From Breznakia sp. PF5-3 (GTDB lineage Bacteria > Bacillota_I > Bacilli_A > Erysipelotrichales > Erysipelotrichaceae): a stretch of 11,496 bases of DNA. The position numbers were made by a program, and so were the translations under genes. The notes under the pieces are model-generated. The model searched no databases and was not told the origin of the DNA. It was given only the letters and a program-made list of their open reading frames with translations. The stretch spans positions 1 through 11,496 of the forward strand of contig NZ_JAQFIQ010000059.1 of NCBI RefSeq assembly GCF_029504745.1, written 5' to 3'. Positions 1 through 11,318 of this stretch are shown here, one piece after another; position 1 is the first letter of the stretch; each line of letters opens with the position of its first letter.

Positions 1-93
1 CCGTTAAAATATACTGAACCGCCGTATACGGAACCGTACGTACGGTGGTGTGAGAGGTCGGTAACTGAATTAATCAGTTACCTCCTACTCGAT
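1..93 (+). mobile_element. 3' terminus of a group II intron (ribozyme domains V and VI), truncated at the left window edge; 3' boundary approximate
   Basis: 19-48 folds as domain V. The lower helix is CCGCCGTAT (19-27) / GTACGGTGG (40-48), with the two wobble pairs and the unpaired AC (38-39) typical of DV, and the CCGTAT...ACGTACGG core is the conserved DV sequence. The triad position reads CGC rather than AGC. The upper helix is short: ACG/CGT with a GAAC loop. 52-90 folds as domain VI, with a perfect 9-bp stem GGTAACTGA (60-68) / TCAGTTACC (74-82). The basal helix GAGAGG (52-57) / CCT-A-CTC (84-90) leaves A87 unpaired as a candidate branch point, so the 3' splice site is expected ~6-8 nt later. 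The segment is a GC-rich island in AT-rich DNA. Confidence 0.6.
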
Positions 94-217: not shown

Positions 218-244
218 TGAACCATTTTCTAGTTTCTTTGTCTT
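218..244 (+). promoter_or_regulatory. Candidate ECF-sigma-type promoter upstream of the fused sigma gene
   Basis: TGAAC (218-222), 17-nt spacer, GTCTT (240-244). This resembles the AAC -35 / (C)GT -10 pattern of ECF promoters and lies ~60 nt upstream of the ATG at 306. Motif match by eye only. Confidence 0.3.
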
Positions 245-305
245 TAAATTGAAGGGATTAATAACGATGAATGTTATTTTTATTTAGGTAAGGGCGGTAT
301 TAGAA

Positions 306-1601
306 ATGAAAATTGAAAAACAGTATATGATTTCGAAAGAGACAATCATAAAAGCAAGAAAGGGAGAAACAGAGGCATTTGCGACGATTTATAAGACATA
401 TTTTAAAAGGATTCATTTTATAGCAAATCAATTTGTTTTAAACGATGAATTGGCAAAAGATCTAGCACAAGATATTTTTGTAACAATCTATGAAAACATT
501 AAGGGTCTTAATGAGCCAAGTGCGTTTCATTCGTGGATTAAGAAGATTACATACAATAAATGTATCAACTATAATCGAGTTAAATTTAGAACAGTGACAT
601 TTGATGATGAGCAAGCAGTCGATAATATTGTTGATGAGAAACTAAAAGAACCAATCGATATTGTTGAGGGTGATCGCATAATGGGAGTAATAGAATCTTC
701 ATTGAATGAAATGAATGAGTCATTAAAATGTGTTGGTTTACTTCGTTATTTTGAAGGATATTCCATTCAAGAGATTGCTAGTACTTTAGAAATACCAAGA
801 GGTACAGTGAAATCAAGATTGTTTAGAATAAAGAGTCATTTAAAGAACAATTTAAAAGCTGCGGGGATTTCTCCTAAGTCTTTTGGATGTGCATTATTTT
901 TACCAAATTTGATTGCTCAAGGATATCAATGTTTGTATCTTCAAACTTCTGTTTCTGCTGGTGCAAAAATAGTTTTTGGTATAGGTGCTACAGGAGTATT
1001 TACTACCACAAAGGTAGCCACTACATTATTGGTAGCTACCGTTATTACCATATTGCCTGTTTTCTATCTTTCAAATCGCAATCAACCAGTATTTGCTGAA
1101 ATGAAACCAATTGAAGTAAATACATTGGAGAAAATTAAACCAACAGTTGATGAAGCGAAAATAGTTAATGTTTATTATGATGAGGCTTGGACAAGAGAAC
1201 CAGTTTTGATTAATGTTGAACTGACAAATCAAAATTATGATGAAATTTTAATAGATGATGAAAAAACGAATTATGTTTATGAAAACGGTAGACACACCAT
1301 AAAGATAATAAGAAATGGGAACATTATCGATCAAAAAGAGATTGATATTGCAAATATAGATATTGAAAGCCCATATGGAAGGAGTGAGCGTGAAGGAAAT
1401 AGTTTTAAAGTATATTTATCAGATGATACATCATATGTAAATCCCAATACCATTTCACTGTTGAGAAATGGTATAAAATCTAAGGAATTTGCATATGATC
1501 AAGATCGTAATATTTTATCAATTACAACTAAAAAGCATTATCAAGATGAATTATATATTAGTGATTATGCAGGGAATATATTTAAAATAGAATTTGAATA
1601 A
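306..1601 (+). CDS. ECF (sigma-70 family, group 4) sigma factor fused to a hydrophobic/transmembrane segment and a ~175-aa C-terminal (probably extracytoplasmic) domain
   Basis: 431-aa ORF. aa 1-183 carry sigma region 2 (DLAQDIFVTIYENIKGL...FHSWIKKITYNKCINYNR) and the region 4 helix-turn-helix (LRYFEGYSIQEIASTLEIPRGTVKSRLFRIKSHLKNNL). aa 195-236 are a G/A/S/T-rich semi-hydrophobic stretch. aa 237-255 (VATTLLVATVITILPVFYL) are a clear TM helix. aa 257-431 look like a beta-rich domain of unknown family. The SD is weak (AAGGG, 290-294). Confidence 0.85.
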   Translation: MKIEKQYMISKETIIKARKGETEAFATIYKTYFKRIHFIANQFVLNDELAKDLAQDIFVTIYENIKGLNEPSAFHSWIKKITYNKCINYNRVKFRTVTFDDEQAVDNIVDEKLKEPIDIVEGDRIMGVIESSLNEMNESLKCVGLLRYFEGYSIQEIASTLEIPRGTVKSRLFRIKSHLKNNLKAAGISPKSFGCALFLPNLIAQGYQCLYLQTSVSAGAKIVFGIGATGVFTTTKVATTLLVATVITILPVFYLSNRNQPVFAEMKPIEVNTLEKIKPTVDEAKIVNVYYDEAWTREPVLINVELTNQNYDEILIDDEKTNYVYENGRHTIKIIRNGNIIDQKEIDIANIDIESPYGRSEREGNSFKVYLSDDTSYVNPNTISLLRNGIKSKEFAYDQDRNILSITTKKHYQDELYISDYAGNIFKIEFE

Positions 1602-1694: not shown

Positions 1695-3770
1695 ATGACT
1701 TATATACGAAGGAAAGGATTTAGAATTACAGTTGTTTTAATAGTTTTAGGAATATTTGTATCAATCATGTCAGATTATTTAATAGCAGATACAAAAAAAC
1801 CTATAAGAGATAAGAATACGAATTCGGCATACATAGTAGAAAAATCAGCAAGGTGGACAAATTCAGAAAAATATCTAGCTGAGTTAAACTTGAAAATAAA
1901 CGGAACAGAAAGAATAAATTCTTTAGATGTTGCGATTGTATTAGACCGTTCTGGTAGTATGGATATGAATTTTATCCAAGAAATTCCAGATGGTAATGGT
2001 GGTAATAAAGGAACCCATAATGCATCATCACCATGTTTAAATCAAGATCATTTTTATTTGAAAGAAACAACCGATGTACCTCAAGTTATTCCAAATACAT
2101 TGGATGAAATGTATTATGATGAAACAAATCAAAGGTTGACAGTATACAATGGAGAAAAAAAGCAGTGGGTGGTACTTGATACTTCAAATCGAATCCATTT
2201 ATATTTCCAATTTGGAAATATGGTTGGTGATGAAAATTCACTTGCTTTAGCTGCATATCATTTCAAACATGATGGAACTAATTTTGTTCGTATTAGTAAG
2301 TGGGATGAGAGTGATGTTCGTAAAGGAACGGCTGAGGGTATTTGGGATCATGGAGATGAAGCACAAGGTTGTTATGATCGCTGGATAGAAGCAAAAAAAG
2401 CAGTGGAAGCTTTTTCACAAAAATTAGCGCAAATAAATCAAGAAGAAGGCTTAATTGGAGATGAAGCTAATAATGTTGCATTGGTACCATTTTCGATTCG
2501 TGATGAAACGTTATTACATCGATTAAATAAAGGGACACCGTGGTATCGTAAATGGTTGATTCAAAATAATTATTTTGCAGGTACGACTGTAAATGTTGGT
2601 ACTGACGAAACCCTTAGTGGTGAATATAATGCCAAAGTAGGTTGGACAGATAATCCTACTGTGATTAGCTCAGCATTAAGTAAATTGTTTACTACTCATA
2701 CTACAGATTATATTTATGGTTTAGGTGAAGCATATAATTTGCTTGATGCAAGAAGTGAATCAGCTAAAAAGAATAAAAAAGCGGTTGTTTTATTGCTTTC
2801 AGATGGAACACCAGATCCAGCATCAGGAACTTTTAGTAATGCAGGGAATATTTATGCTTTTTGGAATAATGATAATCATATCTATGGAATCGCAAATGCT
2901 TTGAAAAATGCAGAAGACCAGATTGATAGTAGTGCTTTTTGGAAAGATATAAGTGGTCCATATCAACGTCATAGTGTAAAGCCTGATATTCTTGCCCGCA
3001 ATGATGCAAAGGGAATAAGTGGTGCTTATGGAGAAGAATCTGATATTATCAGTGTTGGATATATGCTTGATGCACAAGCTAGTAAAGATCGCTTAGCTAC
3101 GATTGCTTCAACACAAAGTGATTATATAGATATCTCAGCAGATGCAACAGGGTCAACAGAAAATTATTTGACCGAGAAGCTATTGCGAAGCATTGTAAGA
3201 CCAGGAGGTCGTAATGCGGTTTTGCGAGATGAGGTAAGTAAGTATTATTATGTTCCTGAAGATAGTGTGTTACCTCAAGGCGTAACAATTGATGGAACGA
3301 TAGAGAGTGGACAAACAATCGTTTGGACCATCGGTAATGTATATGAATACCCGAAAGGACAAGAACCAAGTATAAGTATTCCACTTGTGTTAAAAGAAGA
3401 GTATCGTAGTGTTAAATCAACGACATATTATCCAACGAATAAAGATAATCCAGAACCAGATTTAACAACACCAGATCCAGGAAAAGATGGTGAAGATACA
3501 GGTGCGAAATTATATTATACAGACTTTGATGGAAATGATCGTTATGACACGATAGGAACACCAAAGCTTCCTGTTTATCCAAAAAAAGAAGAAAAACCTT
3601 CTTTTACACCAAAACCATCAAAAGCTCCAGAAGATTTGGTAAACATCATCATGTTGCCAAGCAAAAGTCCAATGCTTGGAGATGAAACAAATGTTCCTTT
3701 CTACTTGATGCTATTGATGATAAGTTTAGTGGGTCTCACATATAATATAAGGATAAAAAATAAAAGGTGA
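1695..3770 (+). CDS. Secreted VWA-domain surface protein (adhesin/pilin-tip-like) with a C-terminal sorting-signal-like anchor
   Basis: 691-aa ORF with a strong SD (AAGGAGGG, 1679-1686). The N-terminal signal peptide has an RRKGFR n-region and an ITVVLIVLGIFVSIM h-region. MIDAS motifs are present: DVAIVLDRSGSM (DxSxS at aa 84-88), TTDYIYGL, VVLLLSDGTPD. aa ~505-612 resemble the beta-sandwich stalk domain of Gram-positive adhesins (TIVWTIGNV...SIPLVLKEEY...YPTNKD...AKLYYTD). A Pro/Lys-rich linker (PKLPVYPKKEEKPSFTPKPSKAP) follows. The C-terminus has SPMLGDETN, a hydrophobic helix and an RIKNKR tail. Confidence 0.9.
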   Translation: MTYIRRKGFRITVVLIVLGIFVSIMSDYLIADTKKPIRDKNTNSAYIVEKSARWTNSEKYLAELNLKINGTERINSLDVAIVLDRSGSMDMNFIQEIPDGNGGNKGTHNASSPCLNQDHFYLKETTDVPQVIPNTLDEMYYDETNQRLTVYNGEKKQWVVLDTSNRIHLYFQFGNMVGDENSLALAAYHFKHDGTNFVRISKWDESDVRKGTAEGIWDHGDEAQGCYDRWIEAKKAVEAFSQKLAQINQEEGLIGDEANNVALVPFSIRDETLLHRLNKGTPWYRKWLIQNNYFAGTTVNVGTDETLSGEYNAKVGWTDNPTVISSALSKLFTTHTTDYIYGLGEAYNLLDARSESAKKNKKAVVLLLSDGTPDPASGTFSNAGNIYAFWNNDNHIYGIANALKNAEDQIDSSAFWKDISGPYQRHSVKPDILARNDAKGISGAYGEESDIISVGYMLDAQASKDRLATIASTQSDYIDISADATGSTENYLTEKLLRSIVRPGGRNAVLRDEVSKYYYVPEDSVLPQGVTIDGTIESGQTIVWTIGNVYEYPKGQEPSISIPLVLKEEYRSVKSTTYYPTNKDNPEPDLTTPDPGKDGEDTGAKLYYTDFDGNDRYDTIGTPKLPVYPKKEEKPSFTPKPSKAPEDLVNIIMLPSKSPMLGDETNVPFYLMLLMISLVGLTYNIRIKNKR

Positions 3771-3787
3771 TAACACCTTTTATTTTT
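3762..3787. terminator. Short bidirectional intrinsic terminator shared by the convergent VWA gene and the anti-sigma gene
   Basis: Stem AAAAGGTG (3762-3769) / CACCTTTT (3774-3781), loop ATAA, with T-runs following on both strands. It overlaps the TGA of the VWA gene and lies 5 nt past the anti-sigma stop. The stem is weak (only 4 G:C pairs). Confidence 0.5.
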
Positions 3788-4589
3788 AGTAATACATTGT
3801 TTCAATAATTTGTTTTAATTCATTACTGTCCACATAACCTGATAATGAATAGATTAAATTGTCTTTCGTGAAATTAGCGTAAGTTACATATGTACCATCC
3901 ATTTGTTTTAGTTTGTAAATAATAATCTTTGTATTTAAAGTACTACTAGTATATTCTTCAATTCGTATTGCATCCCCCATTGCATTTATATTTTCACCTG
4001 AAACATTGGAAGCATTTGAATATCCAGTAATGTGGAAGTTTATATTTGAAGTTGTTTCAGGATGATCAGGGCTTTGAATTAACTTGATTTGTTCAGCAGT
4101 CAATTCATTTTCAAACATTTTTACCAAATCAATTTTATGACCATTTGTAGAAGTGAAAGTAAGTGAATAACTAAGAATTATATTATTTTCAACAAATGGC
4201 TTATATAAAATAGATGATAGTGGTAACTTAGGTTTAAGATAGGATTGGTGTAAAGCTGTCTCAAGTTTTTCCATTGTTGCGTATTCATTAAATTCTTTTG
4301 GGAAATCATCAGATATATCAGTATAAGATGCTCTATCACTATTTAATATTTCCCCATTTTGATCTGTTGGTCCAAAAAAGAATTGTTTGACGGCTTCTTT
4401 GGCCTCTGCTAAGATGTTGGGGTTAAGTATACTTACCATACAGCCAATTATAAGTAGAGTGAAGGCGACTCTTTTTACTACTTTGAAACTATTTTTTTTC
4501 TGTTTGTGATTTACAATTTGATCAAATAGTATATATTTGTCGTTATCAGATAATTTGATTTTAAGCATTGCTTCTTTATACTCGTTCAT
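3786..4589 (-). CDS. Single-pass membrane anti-sigma factor (non-zinc type) with a ~190-aa extracytoplasmic domain
   Basis: The gene lies immediately downstream of an ECF sigma gene and overlaps it by 14 nt. A ~40-aa cytoplasmic N-terminus is followed by the TM helix VAFTLLIIGCMVSIL and an ectodomain. There is no HxxxCxxC motif. I chose the ATG at 4589 (MNEYKEAM...) because GAAGGAGG sits 6 nt upstream. The track start at 4607 is a TTG with no SD. The functional call is from context and topology, not from a recognised domain. Confidence 0.65.
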   Translation of the reverse strand: MNEYKEAMLKIKLSDNDKYILFDQIVNHKQKKNSFKVVKRVAFTLLIIGCMVSILNPNILAEAKEAVKQFFFGPTDQNGEILNSDRASYTDISDDFPKEFNEYATMEKLETALHQSYLKPKLPLSSILYKPFVENNIILSYSLTFTSTNGHKIDLVKMFENELTAEQIKLIQSPDHPETTSNINFHITGYSNASNVSGENINAMGDAIRIEEYTSSTLNTKIIIYKLKQMDGTYVTYANFTKDNLIYSLSGYVDSNELKQIIETMYY

Positions 4590-5070
4590 ATGATTCCTCC
4601 TTCTCAAATCGTTCTTTCAAAATATATTTTGCTTTACTAAGTCTTGATCGTAAAGTTGATGAACTTATATTTTGAATTTTAGAAATTTCTTCTATTGTGT
4701 AACCTTCATAATAATGAAGATAAATGATATCTTTATATTTAGTAGGAAGTTGTAATATACATGATAGTAAATATTGATCATGATGATTATTGATTCCAAA
4801 GAATTCTTCTAAATTAGGAATGTCACTTTTACGTTTGTTCCATACTTTTCTCAATTGATCTTTACAGTAGTTGATGGATACACGGATAATCCATGCTTTT
4901 TCATGTTCATCAGAAGTGAATTCTATATCTTTTTCTATTAGTTTAACAAAAATATCTTGTACACCATCTTTGGCATCAGCCTCATTTTTTAAAAAAAGAA
5001 AACAGATTCGAAAAACCATATCAACATGTTGTAAATATAATCTTTTTATTTGCTCATTACGGTTACTCAT
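4576..5070 (-). CDS. ECF (group 4) RNA polymerase sigma factor
   Basis: Region 2 is DGVQDIFVKLIEK...EKAWIIRVSINYCKDQLRK. Region 4 is LHYYEGYTIEEISKIQNISSSTLRSRLSKAKYILKE. I chose the ATG at 5070 (MSNRNEQ...) because AAAGGAG sits 6 nt upstream. The track start at 5085 is a GTG with no SD. Confidence 0.9.
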   Translation of the reverse strand: MSNRNEQIKRLYLQHVDMVFRICFLFLKNEADAKDGVQDIFVKLIEKDIEFTSDEHEKAWIIRVSINYCKDQLRKVWNKRKSDIPNLEEFFGINNHHDQYLLSCILQLPTKYKDIIYLHYYEGYTIEEISKIQNISSSTLRSRLSKAKYILKERFEKEESYERV

Positions 5071-5090
5071 ATTAACTCCTTTCACTTATC

Positions 5091-9272: not shown

Positions 9273-10967
9273 ATGAAAGAAAAGTTATATTTGCAAGATA
9301 ATGTCGCTATCATGAATTTTGATTTAGCTTATCCTTCCAACATGGAAGAATTGGTTGGTTCTAAGACATTAGGTACATTTGTGGTTAAATATTTAAAATA
9401 TTTGGAAGCAAGAGATCCTGAATTATATAGTTGGATTACAAATGGATATAGTGTTAATGAAACATGTAAATCTTTGTCAAAAGTATTTAGACAGTTAATG
9501 GTAATGTCACCAGATGAAATTGATGATTATTATTTAACAGATAGCAAAAAATTGTTGGAGTTTGTTGAGGGGATTTATAATTATTGGAAATCTCATCAAA
9601 GATTCTCAATTACAAGACAACGGTACAGTGGAAAAAATGCAACTCCTTTTGTAATGGCCGATTCGACTTTTAATACGACACTTCGTAGTGCGTATCGTAG
9701 ACTTGAGCAAAAACTACAAGGAAGAAAGAATGGTGTTTTCCGTCAGTTGCAAGCAGGTACAAATGCAGCAATTTCAGCATATCGACCAAGAAATTTTCCT
9801 TTATCTGAGAAATATGAAAAATTATCTGGAATTTCAATGATTGAATCAGTAATGCTTAGAACACCAATGATTTTATCAACAAAGTCTAACAAACGTACAG
9901 GTATGTTTGAAGAAACAAAGAAAAATCCAATTGAATATTTTACAGGAGATAAAGACACTTGGTTCTGTTATCCAGCAAAAGTAGGTAATTTATTGATTAA
10001 CATTTATTTCCACCGTGATTTTATGTGTAGTGGTGTTTCATTAGCAAACTTATTTGAATTAGCCTCTGCTGAGGAATGTTGTGAAAAACCAGATGCAATC
10101 GTTTTGTTTGCAAATGAAGATAATAAAGATGAAACGGTTTTCTATTATGATGAAGAAGAAGAAATTTATGTAGGAAGTATTTCTTATAATGAAAAAGTTG
10201 AATATTTTGGATATATGAAAAAGATGACTTTAACACTTCATAATCTTGCGATGATGAGACGTGGATGGTTACCAATTCATGGTGCGTTTATCAACATCAC
10301 ATTATATGATGGAAAACGTAAAGGAATCATGTTAATGGGTGATTCTGGAGCTGGGAAATCAGAATCAATTGAAGCATTAAAGGCTTTAGGTAATGATGTA
10401 ATTAAAGATATTGAGGTTGTGTTTGATGATATGGGAACAATTCATATTGAAGATGGTGTTCCATATGGACAAGGTACGGAAATAGGGGCATTTATTCGTT
10501 TAGATGATTTAGATCCAGGAACTCCTTATCGTGATATGGACCGTTCTATCTTCTTTAATCCAGATGTATTAAATGCAAGGGTAATAACACCGGCAGCGCC
10601 ATATAGTGTAATTTCAAAAAATCATGAAATTGATTTATTCTGTTATGCTAATAATTATGATAAAGATTTGGGAATGCGCAAAATTGATGATATGGAAGAA
10701 GCAAAACCAATTTTTGTTGAAGGAAAACGTATGGCAAAAGGAACAACTCAAGAAGTTGGTTTATCAACAACATATTTTGCTAATCCATTTGGACCAATGC
10801 AGGAACAAGATGTTTGTGATCCAATCATTAATGAAGTATTTGATTGTTTAAAAGCTAATGGAATCTATATTGGTGAGATTTTCACACATTTAGGTCTTGA
10901 CCGTAATGACCGTGATGGAATCAATGTAGCAGCTCAAAAACTGTTAGAATTTATTCAAGAAGGATAA
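9273..10967 (+). CDS. Uncharacterised protein with a C-terminal HPr kinase/phosphorylase-like (PEPCK-fold) P-loop domain
   Basis: 564 aa, SD GGAGG (9261-9265). aa 333-410 are LPIHGAFINITLYDGKRKGIMLMGDSGAGKSESIEALKALGNDVIKDIEVVFDDMGTIHIEDG...GTEIGAFIRL. These parallel the HprK C-terminal domain pattern HG-x(n)-G-x-SG-x-GKSE-x(n)-DD-x(n)-EIRG. The N-terminal ~320 aa have no motif I recognise. The gene has its own terminator and a 215-bp upstream spacer, so it is monocistronic. Confidence 0.8.
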   Translation: MKEKLYLQDNVAIMNFDLAYPSNMEELVGSKTLGTFVVKYLKYLEARDPELYSWITNGYSVNETCKSLSKVFRQLMVMSPDEIDDYYLTDSKKLLEFVEGIYNYWKSHQRFSITRQRYSGKNATPFVMADSTFNTTLRSAYRRLEQKLQGRKNGVFRQLQAGTNAAISAYRPRNFPLSEKYEKLSGISMIESVMLRTPMILSTKSNKRTGMFEETKKNPIEYFTGDKDTWFCYPAKVGNLLINIYFHRDFMCSGVSLANLFELASAEECCEKPDAIVLFANEDNKDETVFYYDEEEEIYVGSISYNEKVEYFGYMKKMTLTLHNLAMMRRGWLPIHGAFINITLYDGKRKGIMLMGDSGAGKSESIEALKALGNDVIKDIEVVFDDMGTIHIEDGVPYGQGTEIGAFIRLDDLDPGTPYRDMDRSIFFNPDVLNARVITPAAPYSVISKNHEIDLFCYANNYDKDLGMRKIDDMEEAKPIFVEGKRMAKGTTQEVGLSTTYFANPFGPMQEQDVCDPIINEVFDCLKANGIYIGEIFTHLGLDRNDRDGINVAAQKLLEFIQEG

Positions 10968-11039: not shown

Positions 11040-11318
11040 TTTAATTATTATTAAGATACATGCGGAAACAAGCCAAAATACTACAATATAAGGAATGAAA
11101 AATAAAAGGTATAAAAAAGCCATACCTACGAGTGTTAATAAAAAACCCGTGAGAATATTTAGCTCAACATTTTTAAAAAGTTGCATCGTAATAGGCATTA
11201 AGATATCATCTAAAATCCATGGTGTTAGGGATTCCCAGAAAAGTTGATAATAAAGAAAAGCACCAACTATAAATAGTATTATAGCAATCCCAATGATATG
11301 TTGTAATTTAAGTTTCAT
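11013..11318 (-). CDS. Small multi-pass membrane protein of unknown function
   Basis: 101 aa with three hydrophobic helices (IIGIAIILFIVGAFLYY, ILTGFLLTLVGMAFLYLLFF, IVVFWLVSACILIII). SD AAGGGG lies 6 nt upstream of the ATG, and the C-terminal tail is basic. Confidence 0.7.
   Translation of the reverse strand: MKLKLQHIIGIAIILFIVGAFLYYQLFWESLTPWILDDILMPITMQLFKNVELNILTGFLLTLVGMAFLYLLFFIPYIVVFWLVSACILIIIKHPRKKTLP

Follow-up and report, generated by a model that had tools for sequence, protein, structure and literature searches.

The gene at positions 306 to 1601 (forward strand) of a contig from Breznakia sp. PF5-3 (Erysipelotrichales) encodes a one-component membrane-tethered extracytoplasmic function (ECF) sigma factor. 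The contig was analyzed over its whole length of 11,496 bp, which is referred to below as the window. The gene is a complete open reading frame (ORF) of 431 amino acids (aa) plus a stop codon with an ATG start, in which an ECF sigma factor is followed by a linker, a transmembrane (TM) helix, and a tandem immunoglobulin (Ig)-like ectodomain. The near-obligatory pairing of such genes with genes for surface proteins, together with a conserved ECF-type promoter, is the most informative feature of the system and went unremarked in the original prediction described below; tethering of the sigma factor followed by its release through regulated intramembrane proteolysis is proposed as the most likely mechanism, with a probability of about 0.5. 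An earlier reading of the DNA alone (the original prediction) had placed a sigma factor, a membrane span, and an ectodomain in one polypeptide; this architecture is fully supported here and holds across the whole protein family. The database entry for the protein matches it with 100% identity and carries no annotation beyond "RNA polymerase sigma factor (sigma-70 family)."

Architecture and predicted topology of the sigma fusion

The ECF sigma core is complete and occupies aa 10 to 185. Sigma region 2 (aa 29 to 91; positions 390 to 578, forward strand) matches Pfam PF04542 (Sigma70_r2) with 37.3 bits against a cutoff of 24, and sigma region 4 (aa 131 to 183; positions 696 to 854, forward strand) matches PF08281 (Sigma70_r4_2) at aa 131 to 179 with 43.2 bits against a cutoff of 25.7. 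The Pfam model Sigma70_ECF (PF07638) spans aa 15 to 183 with 27.7 bits (cutoff, 21.1). All three scores exceed the gathering thresholds and agree with the complete N-terminal sigma2-sigma4 core of the original prediction. The NCBIfam model of the ECF superfamily, TIGR02937, scores 84.3 bits against a cutoff of 42.9. None of the NCBIfam equivalog models reaches its cutoff; the best of them, SigY, SigW, and RpoE, score approximately 90 bits against cutoffs near 200 (for SigY, 90.7 against 194). In an AlphaFold2 (AF2) model based on an alignment of 76 family members, the predicted local distance difference test score (pLDDT) is above 90 across the core, and L183, at the end of sigma4, is invariant among the 76 sequences. 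Both a Foldseek search with the model (E value, 1e-8) and phmmer against PDB sequences (E value for AlgU, 4e-17) identify AlgU, sigmaE, and SigW as the nearest relatives of known structure for the core. With regions 2 and 4 above their thresholds, a compact core with the ECF fold, and neither region 1 nor region 3, the protein belongs to the ECF (group 4) sigma factors, and its best core matches show it to be RpoE/SigW-like and not FecI-like.

A single TM helix, VATTLLVATVITILPVFYL, lies at aa 237 to 255 (positions 1014 to 1070, forward strand), where the original prediction had also placed it. It is the sole segment above the threshold of 1.6 in a Kyte-Doolittle scan, with a peak of 2.19, and the only one to qualify when the Hessa biological hydrophobicity scale is summed over 19-residue windows, giving +0.25 kcal/mol in a crude calculation that ignores position effects. 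The two semihydrophobic stretches of the linker, aa 194 to 212 and aa 216 to 234, give +8.1 and +5.6 kcal/mol, respectively, by the same calculation; two or three membrane passes are rejected on this comparison. Among the 76 family members, the crude value has a median of +1.7 for the best segment and +7.4 for the second best, and no second-best segment falls at or below 1. The 15 residues on the N-terminal side of the helix contain on average 2.6 Lys or Arg and 0.4 Asp or Glu residues in the family (net charge, approximately +2.2), and the C-terminal flank contains 1.5 and 2.25, respectively (net charge, approximately -0.8). Since a single segment qualifies and the charges of its flanks obey the positive-inside rule, the predicted topology is a single pass with the sigma factor inside and the C terminus outside, which answers the earlier question of one pass versus two or three as far as sequence analysis can settle it. 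The TM helices of the family are marginally hydrophobic, with 11% Gly, 13% Ala, 8% Ser, and 8% Thr, and that of the window protein contains a Pro. By its composition, the helix would fit the substrates of site-2 proteases.

The cytoplasmic linker

Between sigma4 and the membrane lies a cytoplasmic linker of 53 aa (aa 184 to 236; positions 855 to 1013, forward strand). It had been described as a stretch rich in Gly, Ala, Ser, and Thr (G/A/S/T), which is correct in composition, but it is not featureless, since conserved residues (L183, G187, P200, and K236) mark it along its length. L183 is followed by the sequence G187-[I/F/V]-[T/S]-P, a short hydrophobic run, P200, L202, an amphipathic stretch, and the low-complexity G/A/S/T tract, which extends to K236. 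The juxta-sigma4 motif G187-[IFV]-[TS]-P...P200-x-L, which includes L202, falls within aa 187 to 214 and is conserved in the family; G187 is present in 54, P200 in 62, and K236 in 53 of the 76 aligned sequences. AF2 places helices at aa 190 to 198 and 201 to 214 with a pLDDT of only approximately 55, and values drop below 50 in the G/A/S/T tract, in the TM helix, and in the spacer outside the membrane.

Neither an anti-sigma family nor any other Pfam profile matches the linker at an E value of 10 or lower, in agreement with the original view that it does not resemble an anti-sigma segment. A zinc-finger anti-sigma domain (HxxxCxxC) was also sought: zf-HC2 gives no match at the same threshold, there is no His-Cys motif in the linker, and neither of its two cysteines (C195 and C209) is a conserved position in the family. 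Class I anti-sigma domains are helical bundles of approximately 80 to 90 aa; the linker has 53 aa, no profile match, and helices of low model confidence.

Four distant ECF fusions from metagenomes (P0006, P0007, P0009, and P0010; 520 to 666 aa), which lie outside the window, also have a single TM helix and carry a much longer Ser/Ala/Thr/Gly tract. Their ectodomains are entirely different from that of the window protein, and the order after sigma4 is the same: a Gly, then a hydrophobic segment containing proline, a long tract of Ser, Ala, Thr, and Gly residues, and finally a Lys and the TM helix. The Ser/Ala/Thr/Gly-rich sequence is 70 to 90 aa long in these proteins, compared with a linker of 53 aa in the window protein. 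These sequences suggest that single-pass tethered sigma factors form a wider class, which is possibly clostridial.

Because the juxta-sigma4 element recurs in distant fusions with unrelated ectodomains, it appears to be selected independently of the sensor. It may act as a minimal cis-inhibitory helix, as a helix at the membrane interface, or as a protease-handling element. The first of these would make the protein a strict sigma/anti-sigma pair in cis, in which the helices at aa 187 to 214 fold onto sigma2 and sigma4 as a minimal class II-like anti-sigma element and tethering is secondary; activation would then consist of the removal or displacement of aa 187 to 214, which is compatible with either release or function at the membrane. 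The conserved G187, P200, and L202, their recurrence next to unrelated sensors, and the two helices that AF2 predicts in the motif argue for such an element. The confidence of these helices is low, however, the segment matches no anti-sigma profile and is much shorter than a class I domain, and it can be explained equally well as a membrane-interface helix or a protease recognition element. Strict inhibition in cis is on balance unlikely.

The extracytoplasmic domains

On the outer side of the membrane, the protein continues with an unstructured spacer of approximately 28 aa (aa 256 to 283; positions 1071 to 1154, forward strand), which varies in length and sequence and is recognized by low pLDDT, gaps, and low conservation; it is a candidate region for a site-1 cut. 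The remainder is modeled with high confidence. With the 76-sequence alignment, aa 281 to 431 are all beta with a pLDDT of 96 to 98, and the ectodomain modeled alone has a pLDDT of 96.6 and a predicted TM-score of 0.80. It consists of two Ig-like beta-sandwiches. The first (aa 284 to 355; positions 1155 to 1370, forward strand) ends in an N-I-D-x-x-x-P junction in which N350, I351, D352, and P356 are invariant or nearly so, and the second (aa 356 to 431; positions 1371 to 1598, forward strand) contains the conserved residues D373, S376, D420, and N424 and a terminal D-x-A-G-N motif. Of the beta-rich C-terminal domain of approximately 175 aa in the original prediction, the beta structure is thus retained, but the folded part covers only aa 284 (approximately) to 431, comprises two domains, and begins after the spacer.

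Foldseek searches of the PDB with the ectodomain return tandem Ig-like modules only. They include the cadherin-like modules of the staphylococcal adhesin SraP (4m03; E value, 3.8e-4), the BIg domains of Salmonella SiiE (2yn5; TM-score, 0.51), and the ectodomains of CEACAM, CD22, Dscam, and cytokine receptors. At the level of the fold, the modeled ectodomain resembles the stalk modules of adhesins. It is without a close structural or sequence relative: an ectodomain profile finds nothing below an E value of 0.1 among PDB sequences, and aa 184 to 431 match no named family in NCBIfam or in Pfam, the latter even at E values up to 10 (best E value, 0.39). The sensor had been called a domain of no nameable family, which is accurate for its sequence, but its fold can be named as tandem Ig-like and is not that of a recognizable ligand-binding sensor. 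The conserved Asn and Asp residues gather at the ends of the Ig-like domains, an arrangement that may be reminiscent of the Ca2+-binding junctions of SiiE and cadherin-like modules.

Family members and their distribution

An exhaustive HMMER search with aa 184 to 431 found 85 representative clusters (50% identity level) at an E value of 1e-3 or lower, and with P0004, a total of 86 homologs were checked. Seventy-nine of them have an ECF core at the N terminus and a length of approximately 420 to 445 aa, indicating that homologs retain the fused architecture. Among the seven without a detectable sigma core, six are short (103 to 226 aa) and are assumed to be fragments, and the remaining one, of 816 aa, has only a weak repeated match. 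By sequence, the fusion therefore belongs to a family of approximately 80 diverged members with a uniform architecture. All named members are from Erysipelotrichales, namely, Breznakia pachnodae, other Breznakia, Thomasclavelia, and metagenome-assembled genomes (MAGs) of Coprobacillaceae. Paralogs are frequent, with at least six in B. pachnodae, at least three in B. blatticola, and at least three in one Coprobacillaceae MAG (one genome per species); these counts are lower bounds obtained with a strict pattern (…DYAGN) from a seven-sequence alignment. Breznakia sp. PF5-3 has at least three members.

All 21 family genes examined are uninterrupted ORFs of 413 to 442 codons. This bears on the possibility that the fusion is an artifact, in which a frameshift, a misassembly, or a decaying pseudogene has joined a sigma gene to an anti-sigma gene. 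No support was found for such an event; the contig is short and starts in a mobile element. Against it, the reading frame, length, and domain order are kept in approximately 80 clusters at 50% identity and at 20 independently assembled loci from isolates and metagenomes, and the ectodomain profile matches only sigma fusions at those loci. An artifact is extremely improbable and was rejected, and with it the stop or frameshift that, according to the original prediction, might have separated the sigma factor from the rest of the protein.

Pairing with surface-protein genes

The adjacent gene (positions 1695 to 3770, forward strand) encodes a 691-aa surface protein with a von Willebrand factor type A (VWA) domain (Pfam VWA_2, 29.3 bits), an N-terminal signal or anchor, and a C-terminal tail resembling a sorting signal, consisting of SPMLGDETN, a TM segment, and KNKR. 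ORF and Pfam evidence confirm the earlier reading that the VWA gene comes next, with no anti-sigma gene in between. The two genes are separated by 93 nt. No terminator-like site was found between them, and for this reason they are probably cotranscribed. The VWA gene is the presumed regulatory target of the sigma fusion.

The same arrangement recurs in the family. At 19 of 20 distinct loci, the same-strand gene beside the sigma gene encodes a signal peptide-bearing protein with a C-terminal hydrophobic anchor and a basic tail; at the lone exception, the contig ends 168 nt upstream of the sigma gene. The distance between the two genes is often only 2 to 30 nt, and a separate anti-sigma-like gene is absent at all 20 loci. 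The neighbors are of diverse types, including VWA proteins of 691, 721, and 509 aa, an FctA-type protein of 1,927 aa, a Big_3/Ig-like giant of more than 3,300 aa, a leucine-rich repeat protein, and others of 700 to 1,990 aa. At the syntenic locus of B. pachnodae, the order is a 964-aa surface protein, a sigma fusion, a second sigma fusion that is the ortholog of the window protein (49% identity), a VWA protein, a U32 peptidase pair, and prolyl-tRNA synthetase. The orthologous sigma-VWA pair is conserved, and the U32 peptidase pair and the prolyl-tRNA synthetase are common to this locus and the window.

Several further observations concern these loci. Between the orthologous sigma and VWA genes of B. 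pachnodae, a 36-codon ORF overlaps the start of the VWA gene (positions 11093 to 11203 of locus L002 and 10316 to 10426 of L004); it has no equivalent in the window, the intergenic gap there being only 93 nt. At two loci of B. pachnodae and B. blatticola (L014 and L022), the genes form tandem arrays in the order sigma, adhesin, sigma, adhesin, which suggests that the two-gene module was duplicated as a unit. The surface proteins beside family members share a tail composed of x-[T/A/L/S]-G-D-x-[S/T]-N, approximately 20 hydrophobic residues, and a run of Lys and Arg. This tail is seen in the VWA protein (positions 3650 to 3767 of the window) and in neighbors at L002, L005, L007, L010, L011, and L013 to L023, with VATGDTTN, VKTGDTTS, APRTGDTTN, and VVTGDKTN as examples besides the SPMLGDETN of the window. 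It resembles sortase signals of the (S/P)PxTG and NVQTG types, not the canonical LPXTG, and may be a lineage-specific sortase substrate motif.

Upstream promoter motif

A putative ECF-type promoter, GAACC-N16-GTCTTTA, lies at positions 219 to 246 (forward strand) and ends 58 nt before the ATG of the sigma gene. It is the single match in the window, where 0.15 is expected. Upstream of the B. pachnodae ortholog, TGAACC and GTCTTTA occur at identical spacing with a diverged spacer, and in the same species the motif is found again 62 to 63 nt upstream of the gene for the 964-aa surface protein. An "AAC" element at -35 and a "GTC" element at -10 are typical of ECF promoters, and since the upstream motif has both, the sigma fusion may be autoregulated. 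In 21 upstream regions, AAC-N16-18-GTC occurs 6 times, versus 1.5 expected. A motif common to all paralogs was considered and rejected, because it is convincing only for the window gene, its ortholog, and the neighboring surface-protein gene. The paralogs probably have promoter specificities of their own, in which case the exact motif would be expected to be missing from most of them. The putative -35 element is bracketed by an imperfect inverted repeat (17 nt, 88% complementary; positions 191 to 239, with arms at 191 to 207 and 223 to 239), which might represent an operator or a chance product of AT-rich sequence; the orthologous promoter does not evidently retain the repeat.

Proposed mechanism

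The original prediction had proposed that the sigma factor is sequestered at the membrane in cis and activated either by cleavage or while tethered, with the ectodomain as the sensor, and each of these may apply. For AlgU, sigmaE, and SigW, the closest solved relatives of the core, regulation depends in each case on a single-pass anti-sigma factor together with proteolysis within the membrane. Tethering and release is favored here because of the analogy with IutY of Pseudomonas putida and because the TM helices are marginally hydrophobic and rich in Gly, Ala, Ser, Thr, and Pro. In the resting state, the cytoplasmic sigma core would be held at the membrane, and the conserved hydrophobic helix after sigma4, which contains proline, might mask it as well. 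A change at the ectodomain or the extracellular spacer would permit a site-1 cut, after which a site-2 intramembrane protease of the RasP/RseP type would cleave the weakly hydrophobic TM helix, and the released sigma fragment of approximately 20 to 25 kDa would bind core RNA polymerase. In this scheme, the fusion would be a dedicated regulator of the adjacent VWA adhesin gene and would be autoregulated from the GAACC-N16-GTCTTTA promoter. The G/A/S/T tract could act as a "slippery" stop that shields the sigma factor from processive degradation after cleavage, an idea based on the behavior of low-complexity tracts toward AAA+ proteases.

Several points weigh against this scheme. The linker helices have low AF2 confidence and are not confidently docked, which leaves masking in cis without structural support. 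The promoter motif is clear for only three genes and absent upstream of most paralogs, and the statistics drawn from so few sites are modest. The ectodomain looks like generic Ig modules of an adhesin stalk with no obvious ligand pocket, so that its role in sensing is a conjecture. Finally, a simple tether-and-cut scheme does not need a long flexible linker, which would suit a sigma factor that works while tethered.

Such a sigma factor would act in the manner of ToxR or CadC: the linker would allow the anchored protein to bring core RNA polymerase to the adjacent promoter, and the ectodomain would modulate its activity by oligomerization or conformation without cleavage. Since the target, encoded beside the regulator, is a secreted protein, the membrane would be the place where transcription, translation, and secretion are coupled. 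The conserved long cytoplasmic linker is consistent with this, as is the target gene, which is nearly always adjacent and often within 2 to 30 nt, as would suit a regulator of restricted diffusion; moreover, there is no recognizable anti-sigma domain that would need to be removed. However, no sigma factor is known to function while anchored in the membrane. The composition of the TM helix looks like that of a protease substrate, and IutY, the sole experimentally studied sigma factor of such architecture, needs release by RseP. Activity in the tethered state is accordingly doubtful, and tethering followed by proteolytic release remains the preferred scheme.

The nature of the cue can be considered in light of the neighboring genes. 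Homology between the ectodomain and the neighboring adhesins, which would allow homotypic Ig-Ig sensing, was examined with an ectodomain profile hidden Markov model searched against 174 ORF segments from approximately 250 kb of loci (all loci taken together); it matched only sigma fusions at an E value of 1 or lower, and homotypic sensing was rejected. Because the ectodomain is conserved while the partner adhesins are unrelated and share no homology with it, recognition specific to each adhesin is less plausible than a shared cue from the envelope or a shared protease. A further, quite improbable extension of this idea is a lineage-specific system in which each adhesin gene has its own membrane-embedded sigma factor, acting tethered or after local release. 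Transcription would then be coupled to the site of secretion and sorting, and the Ig-like ectodomain would monitor a common envelope feature, such as sortase-dependent anchoring or wall status, and not an external ligand. If true, this would provide feedback for each adhesin or bistable on/off expression.

Other features of the window

The contig starts inside a group II intron, approximately 210 nt upstream of the sigma gene. The 3' end of the intron, a 77-nt catalytic domain V-VI region at positions 17 to 93 (forward strand), matches Rfam RF00029 with 48.1 bits (gathering score, 40). The start in a mobile element probably explains the assembly break. At the position of the intron, B. pachnodae has an additional sigma-fusion gene and a surface-protein gene.

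On the reverse strand, convergent with the VWA gene, lies a pair of overlapping genes (positions 3786 to 5085). The first encodes a canonical ECF sigma factor of 169 aa (positions 4576 to 5085), and the second encodes a single-pass membrane protein of 273 aa that matches no Pfam family and is presumably the cognate anti-sigma factor. The syntenic B. pachnodae locus has a gene of the aminoglycoside-phosphotransferase family instead. A 564-aa ORF at positions 9273 to 10967 (forward strand) has a subthreshold PEPCK_ATP-like match (18.9 versus 26.5 bits) around a P-loop-like GDSGAGKS motif.

Comparison with known systems

In the literature searched on membrane-tethered or membrane-anchored sigma factors in Firmicutes and Erysipelotrichaceae, nothing specific to the present case was found, and neither the sigma-TM-Ig family nor its pairing with surface-protein genes is described there or in database annotations. 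A 2022 review lists ECF115, ECF201, ECF257, ECF262, ECF264, ECF265, and ECF288 as Firmicutes ECF groups with extensions, and one of these might cover the distant relatives or even the window family.

Canonical pairs under regulated intramembrane proteolysis, such as SigW-RsiW, sigmaE-RseA, AlgU-MucA, and SigV-RsiV, share with the window protein a similar sigma core and the use of a single-pass membrane protein to hold it. The pair at positions 3786 to 5085 of the window is of this canonical type. In such pairs, the sigma factor is bound by the cytoplasmic anti-sigma domain of a separate polypeptide, whereas in the window protein the two parts are covalently linked and a domain of that kind cannot be detected. 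The SigI-RsgI systems of cellulolytic Clostridia also place several paralogous membrane-linked sigma modules with extracellular domains in one genome, where they control genes for cell surface machinery. However, SigI is not an ECF sigma factor, RsgI is a separate protein, and the ectodomains of RsgI vary, whereas in the window family the ectodomain is conserved and the adhesins vary.

The actinobacterial groups ECF48, ECF52, and ECF53 (for example, SCO4117 of Streptomyces coelicolor) likewise extend an ECF sigma factor at its C terminus across the membrane into an extracytoplasmic domain, and reviews have proposed that they are regulated by proteolysis. Unlike the window protein, which has neither a zinc-finger motif nor a matching profile, they carry a zinc-finger (ZAS-like) anti-sigma domain located between the sigma factor and the membrane, one or two TM helices, and Pro-rich and carbohydrate-binding outer regions.

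The closest parallel is IutY of P. putida (ECF243 subgroup), a 374-aa hybrid of a sigma factor, a TM segment, and a periplasmic domain, without a cytoplasmic anti-sigma domain. IutY is inactive until its sigma fragment of approximately 23 kDa is freed by two proteases, Prc, which trims the outer domain, and RseP, which cleaves within or close to the membrane; truncated forms are constitutively active, yet RseP is still required if the TM segment is present. Like IutY, the window protein unites an N-terminal cytosolic ECF sigma factor, a single TM helix, and an extracytoplasmic C-terminal domain in one polypeptide, it has neither a separate anti-sigma factor nor a cytoplasmic anti-sigma domain, and its gene adjoins the presumed target, as that of IutY adjoins the gene that it regulates. 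The two differ in their outer parts and in their cells: IutY has a FecR-type periplasmic domain that is signaled by a TonB-dependent outer membrane receptor of a Gram-negative cell, whereas the window protein has two Ig-like domains, a Gram-positive-type Erysipelotrichales host, and a surface adhesin as the product of the partner gene. A FecR-type domain was not found by Pfam in aa 184 to 431, the core is not FecI-like, and the neighboring gene encodes a VWA surface protein and not a TonB-dependent receptor. The cytoplasmic linker of the window protein is also much longer, and its family is multiparalogous.

Fused membrane-spanning ECF sigma factors are thus recognized and barely studied, and in the literature searched, direct evidence of proteolytic release comes from IutY alone. 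The family of the window protein offers a compact case of Gram-positive type, with no accessory receptor or anti-sigma factor evident, the presumed target gene next door, and a candidate promoter. It would be a tractable system in which to ask whether a sigma factor is silenced by tethering alone, how a sigma factor, once released, escapes the proteases that normally destroy anti-sigma remnants, and whether a sigma factor can work at the membrane. This might also be how Erysipelotrichales of the gut and the insect gut, such as Breznakia and Thomasclavelia, turn single sortase-type adhesins on or off, which bears on colonization. The novelty implied by the original prediction holds in part: membrane-spanning sigma hybrids had already been described, with IutY experimentally characterized, so that the concept of the architecture is established, but the family, its ectodomain, the conserved linker element, and the arrangement of one sigma factor per adhesin appear to be new.

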